Positions 43,816-63,289 are shown, counted from the stretch's first letter. The stretch is DNA of 64,000 nucleotides from an uncultured Candidatus Saccharibacteria bacterium (GCA_964436015.1 CAYTAR010000002.1:9521-73520), one strand, 5' to 3'. Notes: generated by a model not told the origin, from the sequence alone. Numbers and translations are program-made.

Positions 43816-44611
43816 ATTGTCCAATGTGGCGCTCTACATCTATTACGTTTCTTTCATCTTCATGACCGTGTCCGTATGTTTCAATTATTCCTACCATAAG
43901 CAACACACCGATACATACCAGCATAAGTTCTATGAATAGTTTCTTACGAGGTTGTGATTTAGTGAGAAAGCGAGGAACAAGGTCTGAAAGTATAACGTAC
44001 AGAATATTTCCTGATGCAATGCCTAGTAGAATTCCTGAAACTGCCGTTGCTGATTCAAGGAAGAGGTATCCAATTCCGACACCGATAAGTATGGTTGAGG
44101 CGGAAAGGGCATTGTAGAAAATGGCTTTGAATTTAGTATAGCCTGCATTGATAAGGATAAAGTATTCCGCAATTTCTTGTGGTAATTCATGTAAAAATAT
44201 TCCAATAGTTGCGGCAATACCAACCTCTGTGCTTACGCTGAATGCGGTGATAATAATGATTCCATCAACCATGTTATGGATCGCGTCTCCTAGTACAATA
44301 AATTTTCCATCTGATACGTGAGTATGCGCACACTCATCATTTTCATGGTGGTGGTGATACTGTTTAAGTACTCGTGATAGGATGATAAAGAACAAAAATC
44401 CCAATATGAGCGCATACATACCAGCTCGAGGCGCTTGTTCAAGTGTTTCGGGGATCAGGTCAAAGAATACGAGTCCTATGAGTACACCAATGGAGATACT
44501 TACAACATAGCGCACGTATTTTTGGAGTAGGTTGATGCGTGAGCATATAATGATGCTCCCGAGTGCGCCCAAAACAGTTATTACTGATGCGATGATGCTT
44601 TGTATGAGCAT
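43787..44611 (-). CDS. ZIP family metal (zinc) transporter
   Basis: HNMVDGIIIITAF, HELPQEIAEYFIL, and a His-rich loop YHHHHENDECAHTH. Confidence 0.8.
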   Translation of the reverse strand: MLIQSIIASVITVLGALGSIIICSRINLLQKYVRYVVSISIGVLIGLVFFDLIPETLEQAPRAGMYALILGFLFFIILSRVLKQYHHHHENDECAHTHVSDGKFIVLGDAIHNMVDGIIIITAFSVSTEVGIAATIGIFLHELPQEIAEYFILINAGYTKFKAIFYNALSASTILIGVGIGYLFLESATAVSGILLGIASGNILYVILSDLVPRFLTKSQPRKKLFIELMLVCIGVLLMVGIIETYGHGHEDERNVIDVERHIGQSTPQALLAE

Positions 44612-44656
44612 GAGAGTACTATATCATGTGGCAGTATGTGTTGCTATACTATAGGA

Positions 44657-45331
44657 ATGCGAGAATATAGGGGTGTATTTGTGTTTTTCATATTGGTCAT
44701 TCTTGCCGTCATCGCGGTGTTACTTTTTATATTTGGGAGAGAAATAGAACGCGCGCCATTAGTTATTGTGAGTAGTTCATATGAACAAACTAGTGTCTTA
44801 ACGCTTGTAAGTGGAGGGGTGGTTGCCGATGCTCGCATGTACTGCGAATCAGATGGGGGAGTTTTCAATGAGTGCGGGCCTTCTTTTTGTGAAATTACCA
44901 GTACAGGCAATCGAGAGTGCGTGTTTGATGGTGGGTGTTCACTCACTTGCACGTACCCACCGCCACCGATTACACTGTCCATCGTTCGACCTATTAGAGA
45001 AGCTGTCTTAGGAACTCGCTTTGCACTTTCATGGGAATTAGCAACAAAAACACCACCAGTTGCGGTGATTAGGTTAGTATCGTCTGACGCTACATATTCT
45101 TGGCCTGTGGGGGTGGTAAGAAAGGAAGTAATTGAGTTGGGTGAGTTTATGTGGAATACGGGACAGAGTATTGGTGGAGGTGAGCGGGAAAAGATTGAGG
45201 AGGGGGAATATTATTTCGTAATTGATGCGTATGACGGTGAGGTGTGCGTACTTAGTGATTGTGATGCGACAAGTTCAGCTTTTCTTTTTTCAGCAACAAG
45301 TTCCAGTTTTTTAATAAAAAAGATTGAGTAG
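44657..45331 (+). CDS. membrane-anchored secreted protein with a C-terminal Ig-like domain
   Basis: The start MREYRGVFVFFILVILAVIAVLLFIF is preferred. A Cys-rich segment, then ..FALSWELATK..EFMWNTGQS..EEGEYYFVIDAYDG, a domain shared with the next gene. Confidence 0.5.
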   Translation: MREYRGVFVFFILVILAVIAVLLFIFGREIERAPLVIVSSSYEQTSVLTLVSGGVVADARMYCESDGGVFNECGPSFCEITSTGNRECVFDGGCSLTCTYPPPPITLSIVRPIREAVLGTRFALSWELATKTPPVAVIRLVSSDATYSWPVGVVRKEVIELGEFMWNTGQSIGGGEREKIEEGEYYFVIDAYDGEVCVLSDCDATSSAFLFSATSSSFLIKKIE

Positions 45332-45369: not shown

Positions 45370-45903
45370 ATGTATAATATATGCATGAGATACACAAGTA
45401 TTGTTTTTATATTGTCATTTGCCTTTCTTGGTACTGTTTCAAGTATGGGTATTGTGCATACGGTGTCACTCGATGCAAAACTGGGTTCACTTCGATCCGA
45501 GGTGATGCAGTTGCAGTATGAAGTTCAGAATGCAACGAAATCAACTGCAAAAAATGATTCACAACTTGCGTATAATGATGGACCTGTTGAGATATCAATC
45601 ATTTCTCCAGTAGACAGCAAGGATGTGTGTAGAGGGGATAAAATGTCTATTGCGTGGATAAATTCTGGATTAAGAGAGGTGGGGGTATCGGTTGTAAAAG
45701 AGAAAAGTAAAGGGGTGCAGATAGGAAGTGTTCCTGTACAGACAGGAAAGCCGAGTGAATTTTTATGGGATGCTGGTATGAGTATTCAAGGGGAAGAGTT
45801 GCCTGATGGGGAGTATAGTGTGATTGTGAGCGGGGCAAACGGACAGAGCGAGTTTGCGACGGACATATCATTAGAGCCAATTATACTTAAAACATGTAGT
45901 TAA
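45370..45903 (+). CDS. secreted protein, paralogous C-terminal Ig-like domain
   Basis: A signal peptide, then MSIAWINSG..EFLWDAGMS..PDGEYSVIVSGANG. A terminator follows at 45902-45927. Confidence 0.5.
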   Translation: MYNICMRYTSIVFILSFAFLGTVSSMGIVHTVSLDAKLGSLRSEVMQLQYEVQNATKSTAKNDSQLAYNDGPVEISIISPVDSKDVCRGDKMSIAWINSGLREVGVSVVKEKSKGVQIGSVPVQTGKPSEFLWDAGMSIQGEELPDGEYSVIVSGANGQSEFATDISLEPIILKTCS

Positions 45904-48077: not shown

Positions 48078-48506
48078 ATGAAAAAAATGTCAGACAGATT
48101 CATAACACTCAAGGAAGCTGGTGAATTATCAGGATACAGTTCGGACTATATTGGTCAATTAATCCGAAAAGGAAAACTTCCAGGACAGCAGGTGTATTCA
48201 AACGTTGCCTGGGTAACGACACCTGAAGCTGTGCTTGAGTATATGGAGGGGAGTAAGAGAAAAACACAGAGAAACTCGGAAGATCTGTTATTGCGCATAT
48301 TGAGGGGTGCATACATGTGCGCACTCTGGTTAGTTATTGTGATAGGAGGAATGTTCAGTTTATTTCTGTTTTACATGACATCAGTAAGTATTGATGCACG
48401 ACTCCAGTCTGCTATTCAAACAGAAGTTGAAGAACGTATCGTTACTGAGTTTGCCCAAGATACGAATGAGCGTTTTGTTTCATTTTCTTCACACATATTG
48501 CAGTAA
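48078..48506 (+). CDS. membrane-tethered helix-turn-helix protein
   Basis: An excisionase/MerR-type HTH, FITLKEAGELSGYSSDYIGQLIRKGKLPG, followed by TM helix MCALWLVIVIGGMFSLFLFYM. Confidence 0.6.
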   Translation: MKKMSDRFITLKEAGELSGYSSDYIGQLIRKGKLPGQQVYSNVAWVTTPEAVLEYMEGSKRKTQRNSEDLLLRILRGAYMCALWLVIVIGGMFSLFLFYMTSVSIDARLQSAIQTEVEERIVTEFAQDTNERFVSFSSHILQ

Positions 48507-50447
48507 ATGATAATCGATAGACCAAAACAGCTGAAAACAGTAGAAGATGCTCTCACTATAAATATGAGAAGTTTTTCGGTGTATCGCATATTAAGTAATT
48601 CATTCAGAACAAGTTTTATGTATCGCGGGCTCGGGAGTCTTTTACTACTCTCGGTGTTAGCTCCCTCAGTGATTCCCGTTTTTGTATATGCTGACGAGAT
48701 ACCAGTAGCTACAGTAAGCACTTCAACCAAAGAGTCTATCGTGCAAGTGGACGTAGATCCTGTTGCTAAGGTTGATTCAAAAGCAGAAGAAACCATCGTT
48801 CCTGTAGATGATTCAGATGAAGGGGGTGTTGAGGAAAATGTGTCAGAAGAGAGTGGTGTTGAGATTAATGATTCTAGTATAGAACATGAGGAGATAGAAG
48901 AAGGTGATGTTAAGGAAAGTGTAATAGAGGAAGAAATCCAGCTGATAGAAATTGCAAGCTCAACGTTGTCTGTTGAGGATGTAAGTGCTACTAGTACCCC
49001 CGCAACCTCAACTCCAATAATAATGAATGAGGAGTCTCAAGTTGGTACTACTACAGTTAGTACTTCCACAACAACACTCGTAGCGAGTACAACAAAAAAT
49101 GAAATAGAAATTTCAGAGGATGAGGGAGTGGCAACAAGTTCTAATAAACTTACGGAAGAAGGTAATACTGCGGGCGCGAGCGGAACAAGCTCGCCCATGT
49201 TAACTGTTGATCCGGCAGACCTTATACCTCCTGATATTACTATTGTTGGCAATAACCCGGCGTTTGTGGCTGTTGGTGTGCAGTATGTTGATCAAGGAGT
49301 CCTTGTAAATGACAACAAAAGCAATAACTTGGGCCACACAATTCGTGTAAATGGTATAGAGGTTGATACGGTAACGCTTGATACAAGTACCACCAGTGAA
49401 TACGCAATAACTTATGTGGCGGTAGATCAAGATGGAAATACAGCAGTGGCAGTCCGAACGGTATTTGTTGGTATCGCAGAAAGTAGTATAGGGGAAGGCG
49501 TGTTAATGGAAAATGGTGTTGCGGGAGGAAGGGCTTCTTCAACTACAGATACCGTTGATGTGGTTTTTGAAGAAAACCATGATTTTGTACCCCAACAAAA
49601 TATTGAGTTTAATCTTTTGAATAAACATGTGTTTTCTGAATCTGATTGTGTGGTAGTGGGGAACGGTGAGTTTTACTGCGTAACCTCTGAGGATGCAAGA
49701 ACAAAGACAACAAACAACACTTCTCCAGTAGTGTTTGCAAAAAAATCAGACCAAGGGAATAAAGAAATATATTTCAATAATGGAGAATCACTTGTACAGA
49801 TCACTAACAATGACTTTGATGATGATCGACCCGTGTATGATGCAATTACTGGTATCATTGTGTGGCAATCACTCCGAGGCGATCGTTTGCAAATAGTATC
49901 CTACAATACCGTAACGGGAGTTGAGGTGGAGATTACTAATACTCCATATAACAACAGCAACCCTCATGTGCAGGGAACGACTGTGGTGTGGCAAGGGTGG
50001 GTAAATAATAACTGGGAAATATTTGTTGCTGATGCGACACGGAAAGCAGAAGACACTCTAGAGCCGGTAACGCGTAATGTGTGGAACGATATGTTTCCAC
50101 AGGTAAAGGGAGATATTGTCACCTGGCAGTCACGAGTAAATGATGCATGGAAAGTGTTTATCTATGATATCCGTACGAAAGAAATATCCGAGGTGGCTGT
50201 TCCTGCTGGGGGAAGTATTGAGAATCCCCGATTCGTTATTTTAGTTGAAAACAGACTTACGAATGGTGATGTAGAGACTTATGGGTATGACATTACTACG
50301 AAAGAAACATTTCCACTTGGTGCAGAGCGAAGGGCTACGCAAGAGATTCCAGAAAATCCGGCACAAACGGAGCCAACCGTGCTTCCTGTGGTGCAGGAGG
50401 TTAGAGCTCCGAAAGACGATGAGGGTGGAGTAGATGATACATTATGA
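48507..50447 (+). CDS. surface protein: acidic linker, Ig-like (DUF5011-like) domain, beta-propeller-like repeats
   Basis: Signal anchor LGSLLLLSVLAPSVIPVFVYA. PPDITIVGNNPAFVAVGVQYVDQGV..YAITYVAVDQDGNTA. Repeated xVWQ blades (IVWQSLRGDRLQIV, VVWQGWVNNNWEIF, IVTWQSRVNDAWKVF). The start may be internal (48564 or 48618). Confidence 0.7.
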   Translation: MIIDRPKQLKTVEDALTINMRSFSVYRILSNSFRTSFMYRGLGSLLLLSVLAPSVIPVFVYADEIPVATVSTSTKESIVQVDVDPVAKVDSKAEETIVPVDDSDEGGVEENVSEESGVEINDSSIEHEEIEEGDVKESVIEEEIQLIEIASSTLSVEDVSATSTPATSTPIIMNEESQVGTTTVSTSTTTLVASTTKNEIEISEDEGVATSSNKLTEEGNTAGASGTSSPMLTVDPADLIPPDITIVGNNPAFVAVGVQYVDQGVLVNDNKSNNLGHTIRVNGIEVDTVTLDTSTTSEYAITYVAVDQDGNTAVAVRTVFVGIAESSIGEGVLMENGVAGGRASSTTDTVDVVFEENHDFVPQQNIEFNLLNKHVFSESDCVVVGNGEFYCVTSEDARTKTTNNTSPVVFAKKSDQGNKEIYFNNGESLVQITNNDFDDDRPVYDAITGIIVWQSLRGDRLQIVSYNTVTGVEVEITNTPYNNSNPHVQGTTVVWQGWVNNNWEIFVADATRKAEDTLEPVTRNVWNDMFPQVKGDIVTWQSRVNDAWKVFIYDIRTKEISEVAVPAGGSIENPRFVILVENRLTNGDVETYGYDITTKETFPLGAERRATQEIPENPAQTEPTVLPVVQEVRAPKDDEGGVDDTL

Positions 50448-53400
50448 CCCTACGCGCATTGAGAAGAATTTGGGTGAATAAAAAAAAATGGGGAGCACGC
50501 ACGGTGGCGGTTTTTATTGTGTTCACTTTTTTGTTTTCTGATATCTCACAGTTTATTCGTATACCATGGGGTACTATTTTCAGAGCTGAAGCTGCACCTG
50601 TTTTGATTGAGGATACACTCACCATAGTAGATGACTCCATGTTGAATACTTCACCCACAACCGTTTTTATCAGTGATACGGTTGGGTATACTTTTTTTGT
50701 AGATAATGGAAATGCGTGTAGGTATGCCTCAACAACAGATGCGGGGGCTACATGGAGTCTGGCATACACCGTTGACTCGGTTAATACGACAGATTGTTTT
50801 CGTGTCGCGGTGTGGTATGACCAATGGACTCCTGGAGATGATACCGGTACGGTGATACATATTGCAACTCTCGATACGGGCGATGATGATATTTTCTATA
50901 CATCACTTAATACCGTAACTAATCAACTTTCCACAACAGTGATCGCGACAAATCAGGCGGGTACATTTGCTGCGGGTACTAACTATCATTCAATTACGAA
51001 AGGTGGTGATGGAAACTTGTACATGGCTGCAAATGATGCATCGGACAGTTGGATAGTTCGGTGTACGGGCACCTGTACGAGTGCGGGTAATTGGTCAGAA
51101 ATTGCTAATCCGTACGAATTACAGAATGATTGGCCACTTCTTGTGCCGCTTTTGAATGGAAACATAATGACCATACGAATGGATTTATCAGGAAATGATT
51201 ATGACTATAACATTTGGAATGGTTCTATATGGAGTGGATGGACAACTATCTTAACAACCGCGGGTGAGAATGCAACTTTTGATGCTCATTTTGGGGCAAC
51301 GATAGATAAGAGAACAGGGGATGTGTACTTTGTTGGGGTAACTGATAATGCGACGTTGGGAACCGATGACGATATTCGTACCGCATACTACAACCACCAT
51401 AACGGTACGTGGAGTGTGATGGGTAATGTGCTTACTAATGATACAAAAGGTATACGAGACGCTAAAATATTTTTTGACCAGAATTCTGGAGATGTGTATG
51501 TTACCTATTCCGCACTCACCACTCCAAATAGTGCGACAACTGGTAATGTGTACTATAAATATTCAACTGACGGTATGGTTTCGTGGAGCAGTGAGGTACA
51601 GGTAAATACCGTCTCAGGCAACTTGTTTGGTGCGGGACACAATAACTTAATGAGTACTGAGCGTGCATATGTTACATGGAAAAACATATCGGGCGATGAT
51701 TTGTTTGGAGAGACTGTAGTTAATCTTTCTCCGCCTGCGCTTGAGCAGTACTCATATCGATGGTACGAATCTGCGACAAGTACTGCTCCAGGTGCACCTC
51801 TTGCAAATGCAAACACGACCGCAACGTCAACAGAGAGGGGTACGCCATTTCGTCTCCGTATCGCTCTCGATATAGACGATTCAAAAATTGCTTCCAGTTC
51901 TCTCTCTTTTAAACTTCAATATGCAGAGCGGAGTGGGATTTGCGATATTTCTTTTACCGGGGAAACGTACACTGATGTTCTTACTTCAAGTGGGGCAGTG
52001 AGATTTTATGATAATACTGGTGTTGCCTCTGGGGTACAAGCGACGGTGTCTGCGAACGAACCTATTCCGAGTGAAGGTTCTTTTTCTTACCAGTCATATA
52101 TTGAAGGTGGGACATTTACTAATACGTATGGAAGTATCGCAACGAGTAGCGACGGCCTATGGGATTTTTCTTTAATCGATATTTCTTCACCTGAAGAAAC
52201 CCGGTACTGCTTCAGAGTGGTGTATGCGGACGGTAGCACGCTTGAATCATACTCTGTAATTCCTGAACTTATTACCCCATCGCGTCCACCAATTGTTACT
52301 CAGGCGCATTTTCATTTCAGAAATGATAACGGAGGAGAGGATGATGCAACGTCAGCTACAGGAGGGGTTGAGGATACAAATCTTTTTGGTGTATTTCCAA
52401 CCACCACAATACGTATGCGTATTGGAGTTGAAAATAGAGGGTTAAGCACATCAAGTCCAATTCAGTATCGTCTTGAGTACGCGGAAAAAGGCGCGAGTTG
52501 TGAAGTAAGTACAGGCTGGACTGATGTTGGAAGTTCTGGAGGAGCTTTCAATATGAATCCAATTGCAAACTTAACAGAGGGAGGAGATACTACAGATATT
52601 GCGATTGCGTTAGGAGGTGTGAGTACTAATGAATCTTATTTCGTAAGTCCAAACGGTGGTGTTCGAGATACAAATTCACAGACCAGTGCCATAACGCTTG
52701 GTCCTGATGAGTATACTGACCTTGAGTATTCAATTACCGCGACAGGTGACTCAAATGAGGGAACAACATACTGTTTTAGGATAACCGATGCAGGGTCGGT
52801 GATTGATAGTTATAGTGTGTATCCACAGATAACTATGGCTGCTTCAGTAGAAGTATCAACTATCGGTAGTCAGGTGACATCAGTCAATGCAGGAACTAAT
52901 AATTTTTATGTGGGTGGAGCTTTTGTGATAACTGATGGAATAGGAGGGCATTCTGTTACGAGTATTACCATTGCCGAACAGGGAACCGTAGATGCTGGAA
53001 GTAATATAGAAAACATACGCTTATACTACGATCTTGATACGACATTTCCATATGATTGTAGTAGTGAGTCATATGGGGGAGGTGAGTTGCAGTATGGCGC
53101 CACAAGTACCAGTTTTTCCTCCGCAGATGGGACCGCAACTTTTAATGGGTCAGTAGGCATCGATACTGATCAGTCATTATGTTTGTATGTAGTGCTTGAT
53201 ATTGCGAGTGGAGCGAGTGACGGCGAGACTCTTGAAATAGAAATTCCAAATGCAAGTACTGATGTTGTGGTAAGTGATAATCCATCAATTTCACCAACTA
53301 CCTTTGTTCGTTTAGCGGATACAACAACCATAAATAGCTCTGTATTAGATATGACTCATTTCCATTTTAGAAATAATGACGGAGGGGAGGGTGATGCAAC

Positions 53401-56400
53401 GTCAGCTACAGGAGGAGTTGAGGATACGCCGGTGACTGATTTGAGAAAAAACACACCAATACGTCTAAGGTTGCAGGTCGCTAATAGCGGAGGAGTGGGG
53501 GCATCTTCCTTGGCACTTCGTCTTGAGTATGGGGTGAAGGTGAGTTCGTGTAGCGCGGTTTCTGTATGGCAAGATGTCGGTGCCACTGAGGGGGATTGGG
53601 ACATGTATGATTCAACATTTCTTACTGATGGAGACAATACTACGGATATCGTACTTGGTATTGGTGGGGTGAGTAATGAGGGGGTAGATTTTCTTGATGT
53701 GAATGGTGGGGTAAAGGATACTTCCTCTCAAACTGCTCCATTTACGTTGGCTCCAAATGAGTATGTAGAACTTGAGTATTCAGTGTTCGCAACTGCTAGT
53801 TCAACAGCAGAGGGTGAATACTGTTTTCGGGTAACGAACCAAGGCACTCCACTTAATGTGTATTCAGTGTATGCAGAAGTAAGTATTGCTCCAAATCAAG
53901 ATTTTTTCATACAACGCGGTTTTGAGATTGTGAGTGGTACCAGTACTATTTTATACGCGGGAATAGATTACACTCCGCCACGGTTGGGTGGTCGTGCGTT
54001 TGTACGTATCACTAATACGCATCACACAGGCGCAGGGGACGATGATGGGGGAGGAACTCAGAATGCTGATGATGTAACCGCGTACATACTGAATCCTCAG
54101 GATATCGCTACCAGTATTACCATTGCGCGACCAGCGGCAGCGACAATAAATACTGGAGTAGCGTGGGAAATAGTTGAGTATCAAGGCTACCCAGGTGGAG
54201 GTAATGAAATGGTCGTACGCGAACAGGGAAATATATCCATGACAGGTTTATTTGCTACCACATCACCAATAAGTGGGGTGAGTAGCGACAGTGATGTAGT
54301 CGTGTTTATTACTGGAGCAATGACTCCTGATACTGGTACCGCTGATTACAATATGATGCAGGCAGTATCATCGTGGGATGTTCAAAGTCAGAGTGCGGTG
54401 TTTGAGCGAGGTGAGTCAGGAGACACTATCACTCTCAGTTATGCGGTGGTTGAATTTACTGGAAGACATTGGCGTGTGCAACGAGTTGCGCATAATTACT
54501 CGTCTGCTGTTGGCGCAGAGACGGAGACAATACCCTCTTCACTTAACAGTGTTTCTCGTGCATTTTTGCATACTCAGAAACTTGCTGGTGTGGGTGAGCA
54601 GGGCCTGGACGAATTTGGGCATACGGTTTGGATTTCTGGGGTTAATGAAATTTCATTTCAATTACAAAGCGGTGTAACCACACCAACCGCACACCGCTCG
54701 GTTGCATGGGTGATTGAGAATACGCAAGTTAATGGAACTCCAATGAATGTAATACAGTCAAGCGGTACTCAAAGTGGAGGAGCGGAGCCCAGCGTTGCAT
54801 CAATTGATATTGGCACTACGGTGGTTAGTATGGATACAACTTCTGTATTTACTAATTCTCGAGTGAATGGCACAAATACTGCATTCCCAAGACCGATACT
54901 CGCCGTGTATTTAATTTCCCGTACACAGTATCAATTTTGGATTAGTGATACAGGTGGGACGGTAACCTATCAAACTGAGGTGGTTGAGTGGCCAACTGCG
55001 CCAAGAAAGATAACCCAAAACTATTACCGAATATACGTGAATCAAGACACACTACTTCCGTCTGATGTGTGGCCGCAAGGAGCATCATCAATCGGGGAAA
55101 ATACAGTACTTTCACTCAATGATGTGCCTATTGATAGTGGAGATGTTATTCGTATACGTATGTCGGTGTTGGTTGAACAGGGGAATTTACCGGTGAACTA
55201 TCAATCATTTCGTTTGCAGTTTGGTGAACGCGAAACAACATGTTCCGCGGTAAGTGTGTGGCGCGATGTAGGACAAGTGGGAAGCACAACTGCATTATGG
55301 CGCGGATACAATAACGGCAGCGTCACAGATGGGGCAACGCTCTCAAGCGATCCTCCAAATGGAGGAGATTTGGTACTATCAGTTTCTGATAGAGCTGGTA
55401 CGTATGAGGAGTCAAATAATTCCGCGGTGAATCCATTTCCGGTATTCGCGGGAGAAGATGTTGAGTATGATTGGGTTGTTGAAAATAATGGAGCTTTGGA
55501 ATTGACACCGTACTGTTTCCGTATGGTTGAAGCAAATGGTTTGATGCTTGATGACTACGCTTACCACCCAACAGTATTTACCGCTGGGTATGAGGCGGTG
55601 AGCGAAGACTGGCGTTGGTTTGATGATGCTGAAAATGAGACTCCTCTATCAGCTCTTTCTCCAGAAAATTCTGCACCTATTGGAGTAGACTATGATACTA
55701 CCGTACAGTTGAGAGTGTTACTACATGAAATTGCAGGAAAAACTGGACCTCAATTAAAACTCCGTCTTCAGTTTGATGAGTCGGCAAGTTTTACCAATCC
55801 GCAGTTCGTCTCGAATGCGCTTGATTGTGCAGAAGGACTATCTCTCTGGTGTTATGCAGACGGTGGAGGAGTTGATAATGCAACCATAACGACCGCAGTT
55901 TTGACCAATGCAGATTCGTGCGTATCTGAAGTTGGTGATGGATGCGGAACGCACAATGAGCTTGCTACAACGAGTAGTTTATTTACTCATCAACCCAATG
56001 CAAACACAGAGTTTGCGTTTACCATTCGACATGTAGGAGCGCGTGCGAATACAGTCTATTTCTTCAGGATATATGATGTAACCAATGATAGATATGTGAG
56101 TGCAAGCACTACAAAAACGTACCCAAGCTTAGTTACTGAGGGCGCTGGACTTACGTTTACATTAAGTGGTGTTTCTTCGGGTGTAATAACTGAAGGTATC
56201 ACCACTGATAATGCAACAACTCCATACCATATTTCATTTGGCACGCTTCCTTTAAATACGGAGGTTGAAGTGGCGCAACGCCTCACCGTCACCACTAACG
56301 CAACCGAAGGATACCAAGTATTTATGTTTGCAAGGCAAGGATTGTTGTATGATACGGAAGAAATTACTCCAATTACTTCACTTAACTCAAACCCTTTGGG

Positions 56401-56665
56401 GTGGTCTCTTGGGTGCGATACTGGTTCTGTAACTGGTTGTTTCGGATATCATACAGGAGACGATACTCTTGCAGGTGGGTCGGTTAGATTTTCAGCAGAC
56501 GATACGTACGCTCGTTTGACTACGTCACCCCAGGAGATTATTTACAGCTCGCGTCCGGTTATAAACGAATCAACTGACGTGATCTTTAAAACGTGGGTAA
56601 ATGCAGATCAGCCTGGAGGGCTTTATGAGAGTAGTGTGGTGTATATTATTGTCCCTGTATTTTAA
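50444..56665 (+). CDS. giant surface protein (2073 aa): BNR/sialidase-like N-domain, five ~180-aa repeat modules, WxL-like C-terminal domain
   Basis: N-terminal TM/signal helix VAVFIVFTFLF. BNR-like STTDAGATWS and YSTDGMVSWS. Five modules each end in YCFR/YFFR. The last 170 aa are homologous to the C-terminal half of the 59565 and 60943 proteins. Confidence 0.85.
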   Translation: MTLRALRRIWVNKKKWGARTVAVFIVFTFLFSDISQFIRIPWGTIFRAEAAPVLIEDTLTIVDDSMLNTSPTTVFISDTVGYTFFVDNGNACRYASTTDAGATWSLAYTVDSVNTTDCFRVAVWYDQWTPGDDTGTVIHIATLDTGDDDIFYTSLNTVTNQLSTTVIATNQAGTFAAGTNYHSITKGGDGNLYMAANDASDSWIVRCTGTCTSAGNWSEIANPYELQNDWPLLVPLLNGNIMTIRMDLSGNDYDYNIWNGSIWSGWTTILTTAGENATFDAHFGATIDKRTGDVYFVGVTDNATLGTDDDIRTAYYNHHNGTWSVMGNVLTNDTKGIRDAKIFFDQNSGDVYVTYSALTTPNSATTGNVYYKYSTDGMVSWSSEVQVNTVSGNLFGAGHNNLMSTERAYVTWKNISGDDLFGETVVNLSPPALEQYSYRWYESATSTAPGAPLANANTTATSTERGTPFRLRIALDIDDSKIASSSLSFKLQYAERSGICDISFTGETYTDVLTSSGAVRFYDNTGVASGVQATVSANEPIPSEGSFSYQSYIEGGTFTNTYGSIATSSDGLWDFSLIDISSPEETRYCFRVVYADGSTLESYSVIPELITPSRPPIVTQAHFHFRNDNGGEDDATSATGGVEDTNLFGVFPTTTIRMRIGVENRGLSTSSPIQYRLEYAEKGASCEVSTGWTDVGSSGGAFNMNPIANLTEGGDTTDIAIALGGVSTNESYFVSPNGGVRDTNSQTSAITLGPDEYTDLEYSITATGDSNEGTTYCFRITDAGSVIDSYSVYPQITMAASVEVSTIGSQVTSVNAGTNNFYVGGAFVITDGIGGHSVTSITIAEQGTVDAGSNIENIRLYYDLDTTFPYDCSSESYGGGELQYGATSTSFSSADGTATFNGSVGIDTDQSLCLYVVLDIASGASDGETLEIEIPNASTDVVVSDNPSISPTTFVRLADTTTINSSVLDMTHFHFRNNDGGEGDATSATGGVEDTPVTDLRKNTPIRLRLQVANSGGVGASSLALRLEYGVKVSSCSAVSVWQDVGATEGDWDMYDSTFLTDGDNTTDIVLGIGGVSNEGVDFLDVNGGVKDTSSQTAPFTLAPNEYVELEYSVFATASSTAEGEYCFRVTNQGTPLNVYSVYAEVSIAPNQDFFIQRGFEIVSGTSTILYAGIDYTPPRLGGRAFVRITNTHHTGAGDDDGGGTQNADDVTAYILNPQDIATSITIARPAAATINTGVAWEIVEYQGYPGGGNEMVVREQGNISMTGLFATTSPISGVSSDSDVVVFITGAMTPDTGTADYNMMQAVSSWDVQSQSAVFERGESGDTITLSYAVVEFTGRHWRVQRVAHNYSSAVGAETETIPSSLNSVSRAFLHTQKLAGVGEQGLDEFGHTVWISGVNEISFQLQSGVTTPTAHRSVAWVIENTQVNGTPMNVIQSSGTQSGGAEPSVASIDIGTTVVSMDTTSVFTNSRVNGTNTAFPRPILAVYLISRTQYQFWISDTGGTVTYQTEVVEWPTAPRKITQNYYRIYVNQDTLLPSDVWPQGASSIGENTVLSLNDVPIDSGDVIRIRMSVLVEQGNLPVNYQSFRLQFGERETTCSAVSVWRDVGQVGSTTALWRGYNNGSVTDGATLSSDPPNGGDLVLSVSDRAGTYEESNNSAVNPFPVFAGEDVEYDWVVENNGALELTPYCFRMVEANGLMLDDYAYHPTVFTAGYEAVSEDWRWFDDAENETPLSALSPENSAPIGVDYDTTVQLRVLLHEIAGKTGPQLKLRLQFDESASFTNPQFVSNALDCAEGLSLWCYADGGGVDNATITTAVLTNADSCVSEVGDGCGTHNELATTSSLFTHQPNANTEFAFTIRHVGARANTVYFFRIYDVTNDRYVSASTTKTYPSLVTEGAGLTFTLSGVSSGVITEGITTDNATTPYHISFGTLPLNTEVEVAQRLTVTTNATEGYQVFMFARQGLLYDTEEITPITSLNSNPLGWSLGCDTGSVTGCFGYHTGDDTLAGGSVRFSADDTYARLTTSPQEIIYSSRPVINESTDVIFKTWVNADQPGGLYESSVVYIIVPVF

Positions 56666-56673
56666 TACTATAT

Positions 56674-57690
56674 ATGTCTATTTGGTATACTAGAGGTATG
56701 AGATTATTTGTTCTAGGATTCATATGTTTTGTGAGTGCATTTTTTATTACGCCAGAAATTGCATTTGCAAAGTACATACAAGTATCACCTATTGTAATAA
56801 ATAAAGATTTGCAAGCTCGTGATATTATCCGTGAACAAGTGGTACTGAAGAACACCTCTCCTGCAAAGTTAAATGTGTATACATTTGTTAACAATGTTAC
56901 TTCTGGAACGGAGGGGGGTATTGAGGCATTTCTTGATTATCAACAATCAGAAAAACAAAAGTCGTTGGCAAACTGGATTGAGATTTCACGCGGAGTGATT
57001 GAATTGATGCCAGGAGAAGAAAAAGAAATTGAATTTATTATTAAAGTGCACCATGAGGCTACTCCAGGCGATTATCATGCATTGATTTCTTTCGGAACTG
57101 GAACCAATAGAGATGAGGCTGAACAGCGCCTTACACGAGAGTCATCGGTGATGGTTGTTGGGTCAGTAGTGAAAAATACAAGAGAGCTCCTTCAGGTGAA
57201 AAAATTTACCGCGGGGAATTTATTTTTTTCAGGAACTGATGCGGAGTTCACATACACCCTTCAGAATAATGGTGATGAGGTAATTATCCCTGATGGAGAA
57301 ATCTTGCTTTATGATAGGCGTGGAATTGAGATTGGTGCAATGCGCGTTAACGGACAGGGAGAGAGTATCTTGCCAGGGGAAGAAAAGGAGTTTGTTTCAA
57401 CATGGAGCGGTGAATATAGTCTCGGTCGGCACAAGGCGTACTTGAGTGCAGTGTATGGTGCACAGAAGAAAAACTTGACTGATACCACCTACTTTTTTAT
57501 GTTGCCATGGAAGCAGTTATTACTGTTGTTTACTGTACTTATGTTCTTTACGGTGTATGTTATGCATGTGATTCACGATAAATTTTTTCAAAAGAGAAAA
57601 AAACAGGTTCAATTCAACCGTGTATCTCGTCCAGTAACGCCTCCGGTCCCAGGGGTTGGTGTGATTAATCTCAAACAATATGAGGATTAA
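56674..57690 (+). CDS. CscA-like surface protein (DUF916/DUF3324-like Ig domains + C-terminal TM anchor)
   Basis: Signal peptide. YIQVSPIVINKDLQARDIIREQVVLKNTS..WIEISRGVIELMPGEEKEIEFIIKVHHEATPGDYHALISF. A second Ig-like domain. C-terminal TM helix LLLLFTVLMFFTVYVMHVI followed by a KR-rich tail. Confidence 0.6.
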   Translation: MSIWYTRGMRLFVLGFICFVSAFFITPEIAFAKYIQVSPIVINKDLQARDIIREQVVLKNTSPAKLNVYTFVNNVTSGTEGGIEAFLDYQQSEKQKSLANWIEISRGVIELMPGEEKEIEFIIKVHHEATPGDYHALISFGTGTNRDEAEQRLTRESSVMVVGSVVKNTRELLQVKKFTAGNLFFSGTDAEFTYTLQNNGDEVIIPDGEILLYDRRGIEIGAMRVNGQGESILPGEEKEFVSTWSGEYSLGRHKAYLSAVYGAQKKNLTDTTYFFMLPWKQLLLLFTVLMFFTVYVMHVIHDKFFQKRKKQVQFNRVSRPVTPPVPGVGVINLKQYED

Positions 57691-59365
57691 GTCGGCACAC
57701 AACAGTTGGTTTATAAGGGTAGGAATTGTATTAGTTTTAGTGTGTAGTATTGGATTTTTTTCTTCTTACACGCACGCCCAGGCACCCGCGTCGCTCTCAT
57801 TAAGTGTCACCCCTCCTTTGTTCCAACTCACTACTGCTCCAGGAGAGTATTGGGCGAGCAGTATAAAAGTCATCAATGCCAATTCATATCCATTAACCAT
57901 TGTTGCTGAAGTGGTTAGGTTTGATGCGAGTGGGGAAAGTGGTAATGCTAAATTTTTACCTGTACTTGGCACAGAAGGTGAAGGTAGCACACTTGCGGAT
58001 TGGATTACTCTAGAAGAAATTGAGTTAACTATTCCACCTGAGCAAAGTGCGGTAGTTCCATTTTCAGTACGTATACCACAGGACGCTCCTCCAGGAGGGC
58101 ACTATGCGGCGATACTCATTGGGAATAAATCTGTAAAAGAAGCGGGAGCAGGTCCGCAAGTCGGAGTGTCATCTTTTGTCTCCTCTTTGTTATTTGTTCG
58201 TATTGCGGGTGATGTTGTTGAAACAGGTTCTATTAGAGAATTTTCAGCAGATTCTCTTTTTTATCAAAAGCCAGAAACTTCTTTTTCATTACGGTTTGAA
58301 AATACAGGGAATGTTCACTTGTTGCCACAAGGTGAAATCACCATTTACAACATGTGGGGAAAGGAGAGAGGAGTAATTCCGATAAATCAAAAAACAGATT
58401 TTGGAAACGTACTTCCTCGGTCCATACGAAAATTTGATTTTACTTGGGCGGGGGAGCAAAATCCTCTTGAAGTAGGAAGGTTTTCAGCTGTAGCGATTCT
58501 TACCTATGGGCAGGAGGAAAGAAAAAGTGTGTATGCAAATACGTACTTTTGGGTGATACCCGTGATACCGGTGCTGATTGTCCTCGCTTCAATTTTTGGA
58601 ATTATTGTTTTTGTATCATGGATGGTTAAGTTGTATATCAGACGCGCTCTTGAGCTCCGAGGTATATACATGAATCCTGATGATTTTTTGTCTCCACATA
58701 TGAACACGTCAAAGGTGGATATGAAGATGCTGGTAAACCCTGTTGTGGAAGGAGTTATGGATTTACGTTCAGCTACTTTTCGTGATTCTCTTAGACATAA
58801 GAAAGATATTGTAGAGCCTGCCTCTATGACATATAAAGATTTCTTTAAGAAGTACAAGCGTTTCTTTGTGAGTGTGGCAGGACTCACAATGGTTGTGTTT
58901 ATTTTTATGTTTTTCTTTACTCACGTTCTCGTTCCCGAGCGTGCATTTGATATTACCTTGAATAAGGAAGATGGTGAGGTATCTATTAGTTCGGAGGAGC
59001 TCATTAAGGATAAGCTAGATGAGCAGAATAATTATTTTAATTCAAGTCAAGAAGAGGTTTCTTCTAATATTGCTTCTGGCGAGGTTCAAAGGATTACTAT
59101 TGAATTATTAAATAACACGGGAATTCCAGGCAGGGGTGCTGAGATTGCAGTACTACTTGAACAGAATGGATACAGGATTCAGAAGGTCGGTAATAGTAAT
59201 GAAGAAATGGAAGAAAATCGGGTGTACGGTAATTTTACTGATCCACTTATTGTAGAAGTCATTCAAGATGTTGAAAATATTACCGATAAAGTTTTTACGC
59301 AGATTGATTCAGGGTACACTCAAGGTCAAGCAACAAACACTCTTGTTTTTATTATTTCAAAGTAG
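57680..59365 (+). CDS. CscA-like surface protein with TM anchor and a C-terminal LytR_C-like domain
   Basis: SLSVTPPLFQLTTAPGEYWASSIKVINAN..WITLEEIELTIPPEQSAVVPFSVRIPQDAPPGGHYAAILIG. TM helix VIPVLIVLASIFGIIVFVSWMV. C-terminal RITIELLNNTGIPGRGAEIAVLLEQNGYRIQKVGN. Confidence 0.6.
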   Translation: MRIKSAHNSWFIRVGIVLVLVCSIGFFSSYTHAQAPASLSLSVTPPLFQLTTAPGEYWASSIKVINANSYPLTIVAEVVRFDASGESGNAKFLPVLGTEGEGSTLADWITLEEIELTIPPEQSAVVPFSVRIPQDAPPGGHYAAILIGNKSVKEAGAGPQVGVSSFVSSLLFVRIAGDVVETGSIREFSADSLFYQKPETSFSLRFENTGNVHLLPQGEITIYNMWGKERGVIPINQKTDFGNVLPRSIRKFDFTWAGEQNPLEVGRFSAVAILTYGQEERKSVYANTYFWVIPVIPVLIVLASIFGIIVFVSWMVKLYIRRALELRGIYMNPDDFLSPHMNTSKVDMKMLVNPVVEGVMDLRSATFRDSLRHKKDIVEPASMTYKDFFKKYKRFFVSVAGLTMVVFIFMFFFTHVLVPERAFDITLNKEDGEVSISSEELIKDKLDEQNNYFNSSQEEVSSNIASGEVQRITIELLNNTGIPGRGAEIAVLLEQNGYRIQKVGNSNEEMEENRVYGNFTDPLIVEVIQDVENITDKVFTQIDSGYTQGQATNTLVFIISK

Positions 59366-59564: not shown

Positions 59565-60704
59565 ATGAATAGCACATACGTATTTGAGCACATCAAGACC
59601 CATAAGTATCTAGCACTCATTGTGTTAGCGGGACTCTTAATGTGGTCAGTCGGCTTGCCTGCGTGGGCACCCATGGCGCAAGCAGCAGCACTCACCAACT
59701 TCAGTGATACACTCACTGATTCGGACGTGAGTGCACCATCTAATCACACGATTGCCTATACGACACCAAACGGTGTCTCGGCAGGAGAGACGATTGTGAT
59801 TACGTTTCCTGCAGGGTTTAACTTAAGTGATTTGTCGTTTAACGACATTGACTTATATGCAGGATCGGAACGAACACTTGGGTCTTCACCTTCAGGTGCA
59901 ACGTGGGGGGTTGCGACAACGTCAACCACTATTACGTTCACTTCAGGAACAGACACTATTGCGTCAAGTACTGCAGTCGTGATTGAGATAGGTACACATG
60001 CAACAGCTGGTGCAACGGGGGATACACAGATTATTAATCCAGGGTCACCTGGCACGCAAATTATCAACGTGTCATCGGGATCAGGAATTGATTCTGCGGA
60101 TACCCGCGTCTACATCATTGATGATGTTGTGGTCACTGCTTCAGTTAACACCACCTTCCTCTTCTCCATCACTGGAGTAGCGAGTGGTGCATCAGTTAAC
60201 GGAAGTCCAACAACCACTGCAGATACAACCACATCAACATCGCTTCCGTTCGGAACACTTAACGCGCTTCAGTCAAAAACTCTTGCGCAAGATCTTTCAG
60301 TAACCACTAACGCAGCAAACGGCTTCGTAGTAACAGTACAGCAAGATCAAAATCTTCGTTCCGCAACGAATGCAGATATTGATGGGTTCATTGATGGGGC
60401 GTATACAAACACTCCAGCTGCATGGGTACAACCATCAGGGTCCCTTGGACAAGAGTGGACATACGGTCACTGGGGTTTAACATCAGAAGATGCTGATTTA
60501 AACACTGATGAATTCGGATCCGATTTGTGGGTTGCAGCGTCAACTACACCTCGGCAAGTCTTCTCACACAATGCACCGTCAAATGGTACAACACCAAACA
60601 GTGGTTCTACCCGAGTCGGTTTCCAGATTGAAATTACTTCACTTCAGGAAGCTGGTACGGACTACACGAACACACTGACGTACATTGCAACGCCGACGTT
60701 CTAG
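59565..60704 (+). CDS. secreted protein with a variable N-domain and a WxL-like C-terminal domain
   Basis: Signal peptide ending AQA. AALTNFSDTLTDSDV. The C-terminal half FLFSITGVASG..FGTL..LSVTTNAANGFVVTV..AGTDYTNTLTYIATPTF parallels the WxL-domain layout. Confidence 0.6.
   Translation: MNSTYVFEHIKTHKYLALIVLAGLLMWSVGLPAWAPMAQAAALTNFSDTLTDSDVSAPSNHTIAYTTPNGVSAGETIVITFPAGFNLSDLSFNDIDLYAGSERTLGSSPSGATWGVATTSTTITFTSGTDTIASSTAVVIEIGTHATAGATGDTQIINPGSPGTQIINVSSGSGIDSADTRVYIIDDVVVTASVNTTFLFSITGVASGASVNGSPTTTADTTTSTSLPFGTLNALQSKTLAQDLSVTTNAANGFVVTVQQDQNLRSATNADIDGFIDGAYTNTPAAWVQPSGSLGQEWTYGHWGLTSEDADLNTDEFGSDLWVAASTTPRQVFSHNAPSNGTTPNSGSTRVGFQIEITSLQEAGTDYTNTLTYIATPTF
60101..60704 (+). repeat. 604-bp exact direct repeat, copy 1 (copy 2 is 61491-62094)
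   Basis: A line-by-line comparison of both copies found no mismatch. Identity starts at TACCCGCGTCTACATC and ends at the TAG stop. Confidence 0.9.
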
Positions 60705-60942: not shown

Positions 60943-62094
60943 ATGAGTACATATTTTATTTTACACCATATGCGAGGAGGCAAGGCGGTAGGAGCAGTGC
61001 TCCTAATCGCGCTTCTTGCGTGGTCAGTCGGTGCGCCGGCATGGATGAATGTTGCACAAGCAGCAGCACTCACCAACTTCAGTGATACACTCACTGATTC
61101 TGATGTGGGGGCGTTAAGTAACCACACAATTGCGTTCACTACTCCAAATGGGGTTGATGCAGGACAGACTATTACTGTTACCTTCCCAGGAGGTTTTGGT
61201 CTTGGGTCTATAACTGAGGATGATGTTGACATTGATAGTGCAGGAACTCCGCTCACTACTGCAGCGGATTGTTCGGGAAGTGAGGAGGCTGGGGTTGGTA
61301 TTTCAGGACAAATTATTACGATTGATATTTGCTCCGGAGATGGAGGGGACATTGCGTCTTCTACTGCGGTGGTAATTAGAATTGGAACGAATGCGGTTGA
61401 TAGTGGAACAGGAACAAACCAAATTACAAACCACGCAACTCCAGGTACATATATTATTGCAGTTGGAGGGACAATGCAGGATTCAGGTTCTACCCGCGTC
61501 TACATCATTGATGATGTTGTGGTCACTGCTTCAGTTAACACCACCTTCCTCTTCTCCATCACTGGAGTAGCGAGTGGTGCATCAGTTAACGGAAGTCCAA
61601 CAACCACTGCAGATACAACCACATCAACATCGCTTCCGTTCGGAACACTTAACGCGCTTCAGTCAAAAACTCTTGCGCAAGATCTTTCAGTAACCACTAA
61701 CGCAGCAAACGGCTTCGTAGTAACAGTACAGCAAGATCAAAATCTTCGTTCCGCAACGAATGCAGATATTGATGGGTTCATTGATGGGGCGTATACAAAC
61801 ACTCCAGCTGCATGGGTACAACCATCAGGGTCCCTTGGACAAGAGTGGACATACGGTCACTGGGGTTTAACATCAGAAGATGCTGATTTAAACACTGATG
61901 AATTCGGATCCGATTTGTGGGTTGCAGCGTCAACTACACCTCGGCAAGTCTTCTCACACAATGCACCGTCAAATGGTACAACACCAAACAGTGGTTCTAC
62001 CCGAGTCGGTTTCCAGATTGAAATTACTTCACTTCAGGAAGCTGGTACGGACTACACGAACACACTGACGTACATTGCAACGCCGACGTTCTAG
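60943..62094 (+). CDS. secreted protein, a paralog of 59565 with a different N-domain and an identical WxL-like C-terminal domain
   Basis: Shares AAALTNFSDTLTDSDV after the signal peptide. The last 604 nt are identical to 60101-60704. Confidence 0.6.
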   Translation: MSTYFILHHMRGGKAVGAVLLIALLAWSVGAPAWMNVAQAAALTNFSDTLTDSDVGALSNHTIAFTTPNGVDAGQTITVTFPGGFGLGSITEDDVDIDSAGTPLTTAADCSGSEEAGVGISGQIITIDICSGDGGDIASSTAVVIRIGTNAVDSGTGTNQITNHATPGTYIIAVGGTMQDSGSTRVYIIDDVVVTASVNTTFLFSITGVASGASVNGSPTTTADTTTSTSLPFGTLNALQSKTLAQDLSVTTNAANGFVVTVQQDQNLRSATNADIDGFIDGAYTNTPAAWVQPSGSLGQEWTYGHWGLTSEDADLNTDEFGSDLWVAASTTPRQVFSHNAPSNGTTPNSGSTRVGFQIEITSLQEAGTDYTNTLTYIATPTF

Positions 62095-62119
62095 TGCGCT
62101 TATATACAAAACTATATAC

Positions 62120-62155
62120 AAGAATTACACCCGCGAATGCGGGTGTAATTCTTTT
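62120..62155 (+). terminator. intrinsic terminator
   Basis: AAGAATTACACCCGC-GAAT-GCGGGTGTAATTCTT followed by TT. Confidence 0.75.
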
Positions 62156-62209
62156 GCGAGGACTGAAGAGAGTGGTATTATTGATGTGTTACTAACCAAT
62201 ACTACGTTC

Positions 62210-63289
62210 ATGACATTTATACTACGAAACGATCGCACACTATTCAATATACTATTATTTTTTGTACTGAGTATTATTGGGCTTGCTTGCTTGCCCACTT
62301 CAGTGTTTGGGCAGTCAAGCTCAGGTATTAGAGTGCAGCCTTCGTTTATTGAAGAGGCGGTTAATCCGGGGGATACGTACAGTGAAATACTTCAGATAAA
62401 AAATGAGAGTGATGTTGAGGAAACATACTATGTAAGTGTGAGGAATATAAAAGGATTAACTGGTAATGATAATGCTCCAGTGTTTGCAGATGAAGGTGAA
62501 GTCACTGGGCTTGAAGTTGCTTCATGGGTTACTCTTTCAGCAGACAGTGCGACCGTTCTGCCTGGTGAAACCGCACAGATTCCTTTTAGTGTTGTGGTAC
62601 CGAAAGATGCGTCTCCGGGGAGTCATATAGGAGGAATATTTGTGACACGGACCCCTCCACGACTACGTGAGACTGGAGCAGGAGTGGGTATTCAAGTAGT
62701 CAGTATTCTTAGTATGAAAATAGGGGGAGATGTAATTGAAACTGCGCGTATCAGAGAGTTTTCTTCTGATAAAAACATATACAGTACCCCGAAAGCAGAA
62801 TTTACCGTAAGTGTAGAAAATGAGGGAAATATTCTGATTAGACCACAAGGGTTTATAGAAATAACTAATATGTTTGGCGAGCGGGTTGCTCAGCTTAAGA
62901 TTAATGAACGAGCAGGTGCGGTGTTACCAAAAGCGGAACGTAGATTTTCAGTGGAGTGGGAGGGGGATAGTCTCTCTTTTGGAAGATATCAAGTACATGC
63001 AGGTCTGGTGTTTGGAGATTATGGAAGACAGAATATTGAAAGTAATTTATTTATCTGGGTTCTTCCTATGAAAATTATCACGCCTTTTCTTGGCGGACTG
63101 CTTTTCCTTGTGTTTGTAATTTATATCAGTATTCGGATACATGTCAGAAATAAGTTACGTACTGTAGAGAGAACTCATGCACGATTTGTTCATGATGAGG
63201 CGCCGTTGTCAAAATTGACTTTCATTGCTGTCGCAGTACTTGCGTTTACAATTCTTTTCCTGCTAGGAGTGTTTATCTTTTTCGCATAA
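62210..63289 (+). CDS. CscA-like surface protein (third paralog) with C-terminal TM anchors
   Basis: The start MTFILRNDRTLFNILLFFVLSIIGLACLPTSVFG at 62210; the track start at 62075 lies upstream of a terminator. GIRVQPSFIEEAVNPGDTYSEILQIKNES..WVTLSADSATVLPGETAQIPFSVVVPKDASPGSHIGGIFV. Confidence 0.6.
   Translation: MTFILRNDRTLFNILLFFVLSIIGLACLPTSVFGQSSSGIRVQPSFIEEAVNPGDTYSEILQIKNESDVEETYYVSVRNIKGLTGNDNAPVFADEGEVTGLEVASWVTLSADSATVLPGETAQIPFSVVVPKDASPGSHIGGIFVTRTPPRLRETGAGVGIQVVSILSMKIGGDVIETARIREFSSDKNIYSTPKAEFTVSVENEGNILIRPQGFIEITNMFGERVAQLKINERAGAVLPKAERRFSVEWEGDSLSFGRYQVHAGLVFGDYGRQNIESNLFIWVLPMKIITPFLGGLLFLVFVIYISIRIHVRNKLRTVERTHARFVHDEAPLSKLTFIAVAVLAFTILFLLGVFIFFA

Follow-up and report, generated by a model that had tools for sequence, protein, structure and literature searches.

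The 64,000-nucleotide stretch analysed here (GCA_964436015.1, CAYTAR010000002.1:9521-73520; hereafter the window, with positions counted from its first letter) derives from an uncultured, ultra-small bacterium of the CPR (Candidate Phyla Radiation), also called Patescibacteria, whose lineage we read as Paceibacteria. Its genes between 48078 and 63692 lie on one strand and either overlap or are separated by short gaps. The first large gene of this cluster (50444..56665, + strand, as are all features of the cluster given below) encodes a protein of 2,073 amino acids, called here the giant, which is probably a large surface adhesin. Listing of the open reading frames and translation returned this gene exactly as it stood in a first-pass annotation made from the sequence alone, which had proposed for its product an array of five divergent modules of about 180 aa behind a sialidase-like, glycan-binding head. 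Beyond that annotation, we found a C-terminal domain (CTD), two more conserved domains (aa 801-969 and 1151-1523) and the setting of the gene in an operon. We established the domain anatomy of the giant, the homology of its CTD to neighbouring proteins and to the NCBIfam model of Pam pilins, the homology of other neighbours to WxL-interacting proteins (WxLIP), and the gene order.

The giant begins with a signal or anchor region (aa 1-49, 50444..50590), in which a basic stretch, a hydrophobic core at about aa 19-37 and the sequence FRAEA|AP can be read in succession; the orthologues share a mature N-terminus, AA-x-V-x-ID, right behind the hydrophobic stretch. A beta-propeller head of BNR/sialidase type follows (aa 50-433, 50591..51742), then the modules M1 (aa 434-613, 51743..52282; a separate subtype, hidden Markov model (HMM) E-value 8e-64) and M2 (aa 621-800, 52304..52843; E 3e-78). 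An inter-module domain of 169 aa with two conserved cysteines (aa 801-969, 52844..53350) separates M2 from M3 (aa 971-1150, 53354..53893), the copy used for the structure model. The 373-aa mid domain (aa 1151-1523, 53894..55012) is the most conserved part of the protein; neither it nor the inter-module domain could be assigned to a family. Then come M4 (aa 1524-1715, 55013..55588; E 5e-66), M5 (aa 1719-1900, 55598..56143; E 4e-70), which is of a Cys-rich subtype, and the CTD (aa 1901-2073, 173 aa, 56144..56662), which reaches the last residue. Searched as a whole against Pfam and NCBIfam, the giant gave a single weak match, to BNR_2, and against PDB sequences it gave none. About 57 full-length orthologues with 39-65% identity were recovered, in metagenome-assembled genomes (MAGs) of Patescibacteria only, and conservation among them is about 45% all along the protein except at the M1 slot. 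Every domain of the giant was found again in dozens of large proteins of other architecture, and its parts are shuffled among hundreds of other large surface proteins.

The CTD relates the giant to a recently described pilus. The Pam pilus system, first reported in 2026 from one Saccharimonadia species, is made of the pilins PamA, PamB and PamE, the tip pilin PamT and PamC and PamD, which are chaperones anchored in the membrane (Troman et al. 2026, bioRxiv 10.64898/2026.03.03.709456). According to this preprint, in PamA and PamB a donated linker strand comes after an N-terminal sandwich and before a truncated immunoglobulin (Ig)-like C-terminal domain, PamT (about 26 kDa) is a bare C-terminal domain without linker, and PamC and PamD are PapD/FimC-like chaperones with a C-terminal transmembrane (TM) helix. 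The tip pilin is described as bare and no adhesin is described, and Pam pilins are reported chiefly in Saccharimonadia and Microgenomatia; the preprint mentions neither WxL, DUF916, an adhesin subunit nor Paceibacteria. The last 146 residues of the giant matched the NCBIfam model NF058581 (CPR_Pam_pilin_C) over model positions 4-148 of 148 with an E-value of 1.5e-5. The same model was matched by all 40 orthologues tested (best E 1.1e-10) and was the sole recurrent family among them. The window CTD scored 25.1 bits when isolated and 21.2 bits together with M5, the curated cut-off of the model being 55 bits. We therefore regard it as a distant relative of the Pam C-domain and not as a member that PGAP would name.

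A profile built from the CTDs of giants matched two pilin-like proteins encoded downstream with E-values of 5e-21 and 1e-20, over the full length and through the last residue. At least 56 further proteins with modules (587-4,319 aa) also end in this domain, always exactly at the C-terminus. Modules of the M5 subtype always stand directly N-terminal of a CTD, and this M5+CTD unit occurs in at least 125 reference-genome stretches; in an alignment of 40 orthologues, M5 shows four invariant cysteines. Structural comparison of M5+CTD with the PDB using Foldseek mostly returned generic tandem-Ig proteins (integrins, Fabs, transglutaminase) and was not decisive, the CsuE and CfaE complexes being among the matches at E ~1e-4. 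The matches specific to the CTD were protomers of donor-strand-exchange fibres. Searching PDB sequences with the CTD and a short pilin gave no match in a set that did not hold the PamA/B entries 25PZ and 25QA, and a homologue search with the CTD alignment returned short unnamed fragments only. No match to the Pfam WxL domain (PF13731) was obtained with the giant (at E-values up to 1) or with the 40 orthologous C-terminal segments, and for this reason we do not claim the CTD as a WxL domain. The two Trp-x-Leu motifs are absent from it; at the equivalent places, G-[YF]-x-V and Y-[IV] are conserved.

The two downstream proteins have the layout of Pam pilins. Short pilin 1 (379 aa, 59565..60704) shows a signal peptide, an N-terminal domain, a conserved linker and a Pam-type CTD. 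The latter was recognised by the CTD profile (E 5e-21), by BLASTP with the giant's CTD (28% identity over 185 aa, E 5e-6) and by NF058581 (E 1e-5). Short pilin 2 (383 aa, 60943..62094) has a different N-terminal domain and was matched by the CTD profile at E 1e-20. In the short pilins, the 12-13-aa linker between the two domains (RVYIIDDVVVTA, the segment being also written RVYIIDDVVVTASV) is strongly conserved and resembles the donated linker of PamA and PamB.

Two further features of the short pilins were observed. A block of 604 nucleotides (nt) is 100% identical between their genes (60101-60704 and 61491-62094) and spans the interdomain linker and the whole CTD up to the stop codon, while between the N-terminal domains identity is about 76% over 144 nt. 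The pattern has the look of a recent gene conversion or duplication in which the assembly part is kept constant and the exposed part varies. Moreover, the mature N-terminus behind the signal peptide, AA-LTN[VF]SDTL[ST]DSD, is near-invariant and as conserved as the linker in a set comprising the window (59565-59720 and 60943-61100) and the loci L004-L008, L018, L023, L037, L044, L047, L063 and L068. Its role could be that of a second candidate donor strand or of a motif for processing or recognition.

The remaining partners of the giant are three paralogous chaperone- or anchor-like proteins. The first (338 aa, 56674..57690) runs from a signal peptide through two beta domains to a C-terminal TM helix and matched Pfam WxLIP_PGBD with an E-value of 1.6e-3; in related loci, too, such a protein is encoded next to the giant on its downstream side. 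The second (561 aa, 57680..59365) has TM segments and a C-terminal LytR_C domain (Pfam, E 1.2e-5). The third (about 360-404 aa, 62075..63289) probably has its true start downstream of the TTG. All three have in common a core of about 300 aa, a signal peptide and a C-terminal TM helix visible in the sequence. Searched against the PDB, the profile of this family matched the solved structure of EfmWxLIP1, a WxL-interacting protein of Enterococcus faecium (9i25_C, 9i1y_A), with an E-value of 6e-7, and Pfam WxLIP_PGBD (PF06030) was matched by 12 of 15 family members (best E 1.1e-6). At the level of sequence, the membrane-anchored neighbours are thus demonstrably WxLIP homologues, although DUF3324 could not be detected in them by sequence searches. 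WxL clusters of Firmicutes encode a large WxL protein, a small WxL protein and a WxLIP, composed of DUF916, DUF3324 and a TM helix; by prediction, a gap of the WxL sandwich is closed by one hairpin strand of the WxLIP (Hassan et al. 2023, PMC10599100). The giant locus resembles these clusters in its WxLIP-like partners and differs from them in its CTD, with aromatic-x-aliphatic positions in place of Trp-x-Leu; WxL proteins are believed to attach to peptidoglycan by non-covalent binding, and filament formation by them is not known. By architecture (signal peptide, two beta domains, C-terminal TM helix), the same three partners resemble PamC and PamD.

Gene order was compared in 62 related reference-genome loci with sufficient downstream sequence. 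At least one WxLIP-like gene lies within 3.5 kb downstream of the CTD protein in 58 of the 62 loci, and exactly two are present in 49. The third WxLIP-like gene, downstream of the short pilin(s), is found in the identical order in other genomes. The organisms are of Paceibacteria/Parcubacteria lineages (Minisyncoccia as well as Kaiser-, Harrison-, Sung-, Jorgensen-, Yanofsky- and Nomurabacteria), and a large number of them are MAGs with generic labels. In several genomes, the place of the giant is taken by a minimal protein of about 441 aa (L047 7740-9062, L037 2633-3949, L063 7737-9059, L023 7725-9062 and L044 1604-2962), the gene order being otherwise unchanged: minimal protein, WxLIP-like, WxLIP-like, short pilin, WxLIP-like. 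In these proteins, a signal peptide and a repeat-like segment of about 60 aa (DYTSTNF-x-LRDP ... STSTNF-x-LRSGFLYF) are followed by a single module of the M5 type and by the CTD. At this position, the gene can therefore be described as an M5+CTD core carrying an N-terminal payload of very variable size.

With moderate confidence, we read the giant as the payload-bearing subunit of a donor-strand surface-fibre system of the Pam/WxL type in Paceibacteria. From the anatomy and the neighbourhood described above we infer export, strand exchange, tip position and host adhesion, as follows. The giant would be exported by Sec, and its last 173 residues would fold as an incomplete Ig-like pilin domain. 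This domain would first be capped by a strand of one of the membrane-anchored WxLIP/PamC-D-like proteins encoded directly downstream, and would then take its donor strand from one of the two pilins of about 380 aa encoded 3 kb downstream. In a monomer model, only about 4 residues of the giant separate the last strand of M5 from the CTD; since a free donor linker is apparently lacking, the giant would be placed, like PamT, at the distal end of the fibre, accepting a strand but not donating one. Some 1,900 residues, comprising the BNR propeller head, five Ig-like modules and two unassigned domains, would then be shown to the host cell. The adhesin-type repeat array of the first-pass annotation is consistent with these data, namely a secreted all-beta protein with shuffled domains and a pilin-type end, encoded in a cluster resembling pilus and WxL loci.

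Like the Pam system, the giant locus belongs to CPR bacteria and encodes no usher or envelope-spanning machine nearby. It differs in its lineage, Paceibacteria, in scores below the NCBI cut-off, which make the relationship a distant one, and in that the RbmA-like PamR and the ATP-synthase neighbourhood of the Pam system are not seen. PamT is a bare domain, whereas the giant has about 1,900 residues before its CTD, a giant subunit of a kind not described in the Pam paper. The proposed arrangement, with an N-terminal receptor part, a strand-accepting C-terminal pilin domain and a tip position, is that of the chaperone-usher tip adhesins FimH, PapG, CsuE and CfaE. In contrast to chaperone-usher pili, the locus has no usher, its putative chaperones are membrane-anchored and there is no sequence similarity; the payload is also about ten times larger than that of the tip adhesins and comprises many domains. 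Pfam scans of the giant's neighbours gave no match to usher, PapD_N or PapD_C. The organism belongs to a lineage that has no outer membrane.

Several points weigh against the fibre reading. The NCBIfam matches that were inspected individually all lie under the curated cut-off, the window protein reaching 25 of the 55 bits required, and the putative kinship with PamA and PamB passes through the NCBIfam model. The tip assignment depends on a monomer model, and the conserved mature N-terminus of the giants, AA-x-V-x-ID, could itself be a donor strand. Binding of a ligand or host by the giant is putative. In addition, short pilins were found within 8 kb in just 6 of 44 loci with full flanks, and two loci (L002 and L003) encode two giants each with no short pilin within 10 kb. 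The tightly conserved unit consists of the giant and two WxLIP-like genes, and it suits surface docking no less than a pilus.

Such docking, that is, surface display of the WxL type without a filament, is the main alternative, possible but less probable. The CTD would be permanently docked by strand insertion on the downstream WxLIP-like proteins, the giant would stand on the envelope, and the third WxLIP-like protein would have the short pilins as its separate small clients. The WxLIP homology of the partners, the unit conserved in 49 of 62 loci and the scarcity of nearby short pilins all argue for it. It is opposed by the CTD itself, whose sequence matches neither Pfam WxL nor a PDB chain but is recognised by the model of Pam pilins in all 40 of the orthologues tested, by its specific structural matches, which are fibre protomers, and by the existence of cryo-EM structures of Pam filaments made from such domains; moreover, the pilin genes may sit elsewhere in the genomes.

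Each of the five modules detected the others by BLASTP, as expected from the first-pass annotation, and the borders given by an HMM of the five copies agree with the earlier ones to within 3 aa. M2 and M3 are the closest pair (48% identity over 178 aa, E 2e-52), the remaining pairs showing 23-30% identity. Mutual matches among M1, M2, M3 and M4 have E-values of 1e-7 to 1e-11, and M5 gave the weakest matches (5e-4 to 5e-2). The motif skeleton proposed for the modules is kept in an alignment of 73 diverse members of the family. A single Cys and the Arg of (I/V)R(L/M)R are invariant in it, and the Leu of x-L-(Q/E)-(Y/F) as well as the Y, F and R of Y-C-F-R are conserved in at least 90% of the sequences. 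In view of this conservation the skeleton is real, except for its W-x-D-V-G element, which proved to be subtype-specific.

The identical DNA run noticed between M2 and M3 is present at 52343-52366 and 53393-53416, and is 24 nt long instead of the 23 first counted. We resampled codons according to the gene's own usage while keeping both proteins fixed. A run of 24 nt arose in 5 of 5,000 such trials, and the identity thus exceeds what amino-acid conservation explains. The tract is missing from the locus of the closest orthologue (L001). In another orthologue (P0007), M2 and M3 are 62% identical to each other, more than either is to the M2 and M3 of the window (47-52%), and among distant orthologues the two modules are not sorted cleanly by position. 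The higher internal identity points to occasional gene conversion between M2 and M3, as read from these sequence comparisons.

The M1 slot (aa 434-613) tells of a different kind of exchange. A domain of the aa 801-969 type occupies this slot in 55 of 57 orthologues (P0003-P0057; 45% identity, E 1e-42), an M1-type module being present only in the giant of the window and its closest orthologue (P0002); the M1 subtype was found elsewhere in unrelated architectures. We deduced from this comparison an ancestral layout head-(IM-M)x2-mid-M4-M5-CTD, where IM is the inter-module domain and M a module, and an origin of the five modules by cassette swap. On these alignments, the five-module arrangement is a lineage-specific state.

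The structure of M3 was predicted by AlphaFold2 from the 73-sequence alignment with a pLDDT of 97 and a pTM of 0.92. The model shows a beta-sandwich core of about 100-116 residues and a loop-rich elaboration of about 70 residues, which is conserved, ordered (pLDDT >90) and carries subtype-specific motifs such as TDG-x-NTT-x-I and NGG-V-[KR]-D-T. The core is an Ig/FN3-like sandwich; among its closest neighbours in structure are stalk domains from fibrillar adhesins and from the pilins of Gram-positive bacteria. Against PDB sequences, the module profile matched titin FN3 alone (E ~0.1), which is insufficient for a family assignment, and a check against LamG and CBM families returned neither a clean sequence match nor a clean fold match. 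No Pfam or NCBIfam model covers the module, even in proteins made nearly wholly of it (P0117 and others). Searched exhaustively with the module profile, a set of 1.84 billion cluster representatives yielded 5,096 proteins at E-values of 1e-3 or below, among which 1,202 at 1e-30 or below. The module thus represents a large domain family, uncatalogued so far, whose members number in the thousands. Proteins carry up to 22 copies, with 13-22 in tandem in some of them. Outside CPR, the module occurs in few proteins, from MAGs labelled Chloroflexota and Nitrospirota. Defining this family would improve the annotation of many giant hypothetical surface proteins.

One of the proteins outside CPR (P0117, from the Chloroflexota MAG MFC1925596.1) is 2,536 aa long and shows 13 modules after an N-terminal methylation motif of type IV pilins (Pfam N_methyl, E 2e-4) and a galactose-binding-like domain at its C-terminus. 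From this layout, the module seems to be mounted on another kind of pilus outside CPR.

The modules might be a purely structural stalk, like the Ig repeats of fibrillar adhesins, which projects the head and binds no ligand; we consider this rather unlikely. The sandwich core is common to the module and the Ig/FN3-like stalk and CARDB-type domains of adhesins and sortase pilins, the Y-x-F-R-V strand of the module resembles the F-strand motif of FN3 domains (titin, E ~0.1), and the long tandem arrays as well as the stalk domains among the structural neighbours agree with such a role. Unlike those stalk domains, which it matches in its core, the module adds the elaboration of about 70 conserved residues, and it is detected by no Pfam or NCBIfam model. 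So large a part of the 180 residues being ordered and bearing subtype motifs would be unusual in a simple spacer. The exchange of subtypes as cassettes at the M1 slot also speaks against this role.

The head was examined for the BNR motifs and the propeller fold proposed earlier. One near-canonical Asp-box is present (TTDAGATW, aa 97), the other motifs being degenerate. The sialidase-like propeller is supported at the family and fold level only and the glycan-binding head at the fold level only, the proposed lectin role being putative. Of 13 orthologous heads, 9 were matched by Pfam BNR_2 (PF13088), with a best E-value of 1.4e-7; the head of the giant itself matched with an E-value of 1.6e-3 and 18.3 bits, under the cut-off of 31.4. 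Against the PDB, the head profile gave weak matches (E 0.1-0.5, single blades), which were sialidase-fold propellers only: sialidases and an L-rhamnose-alpha-1,4-D-glucuronate lyase. The head domain occurs in 59 other fetched proteins and the inter-module domain, which is conserved among orthologues and found no match in PDB sequences, in 58. The mid domain shows 67% mean column identity and about 90 invariant positions, including many W, H, E and R and the motifs DEFGH-x-VW, SVAW-x-IEN-x-Q and EVVEWP, with no sequence match in Pfam, NCBIfam or the PDB; it might be an enzymatic or a receptor-binding domain.

That the giant is chiefly an extracellular glycan-degrading enzyme, with a catalytic head and perhaps mid domain, modules serving as carbohydrate-binding or spacer units and the CTD as a tether, is improbable: the BNR_2 matches, the enzymes among the PDB matches and the invariant H, E, R and W of the mid domain would suit it, but the PDB matches are limited to single blades at high E-values, too short for placing the catalytic residues of sialidases (Arg triad, Tyr/Glu nucleophile pair, Asp acid/base), no catalytic motif was identified in the giant, BNR propellers are frequently non-catalytic, and an enzyme would be compatible with the same tethering mechanism and would differ only in the job of the payload. 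Two other candidates were rejected. Anchoring by LPXTG and sortase was ruled out because the C-terminus of the giant, ...IIVPVF, has no sorting motif, and an origin as a phage tail fibre was ruled out by cellular housekeeping neighbours and by synteny kept across many MAGs.

Host recognition and attachment are poorly understood in CPR bacteria and nearly blank for Paceibacteria (Parcubacteria), of which we know no cultured representative. Returning to the fibre reading, our results suggest that Pam-type systems reach into Paceibacteria, that they can bear very large, modular, cassette-swapped payloads, which are candidate host-specificity determinants, and that the Pam-type "chaperones" are homologous to the WxL-interacting proteins of Gram-positive pathogens and commensals. 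What is new here is a giant modular subunit with a distant Pam-pilin C-domain, in a lineage and with WxLIP partner homologies not yet reported. The link between Pam and WxLIP appears in neither the Pam nor the WxL literature and would carry mechanistic insight both ways. The giant is a candidate for how CPR bacteria grip their hosts. A wider generalisation, possible but speculative, is that Paceibacteria possess a general plug-in system for display, built from Pam-type CTDs and WxLIP-like proteins and in evolutionary continuity with the WxL/WxLIP clusters of Firmicutes, in which the giant is a host-specificity determinant. If this were true, donor-strand fibres or anchors would bear payloads ranging from 60 to beyond 4,000 residues, and a giant with swappable 180-aa cassettes would set host specificity in an uncultured CPR lineage. 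The WxL clusters of enterococci, listeriae and lactobacilli would then work by donor-strand complementation and may form Pam-like fibres.

Upstream of the giant, the cluster opens with a gene for a 142-aa protein (48078..48506) with one TM segment and a weak match to Pfam HTH_17 (E 5e-3). It is followed by a gene for a secreted protein of 646 aa (48507..50447) with a long acidic low-complexity linker, an Ig-like domain (Pfam Bact_surface_Ig-like, E 7e-10) and beta-propeller repeats (NCBIfam beta_prop_Msarc repeat, TIGR04275-like, E 1e-11 and 44 bits, under the cut-off of 85 bits). The two genes tend to accompany the giant: in L001, counterparts of both adjoin it on the upstream side, and in the five further loci fetched, the genes upstream differ in size or spacing or one of them is not evident. 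Taken separately, a counterpart of the 142-aa gene (129-141 aa) was found in L001-L004. A gene of 576-668 aa lies directly upstream of the giant in L001, L005 and L006, and a gene of 430 aa in L004; in L002 and L003, a second giant lies between a 602-aa upstream gene and the giant. A scan of the cluster for promoters and terminators gave counts no higher than shuffled controls.

Two small secreted proteins are encoded upstream of mscL, at 44600-45331 (243 aa) and 45370-45903 (177 aa). They have in common a C-terminal [ED]GEY...[VI][VI]...[AY]...G motif, the 177-aa protein being weakly FlgD_ig-like, and neither contains the module or the CTD. Downstream of the cluster, at a position whose equivalent falls past the end of the window, L001 (23286-24983) and L004 (21572-22411) carry genes of the FGE-sulfatase family and encode proteins with faint dockerin/cohesin-like matches.

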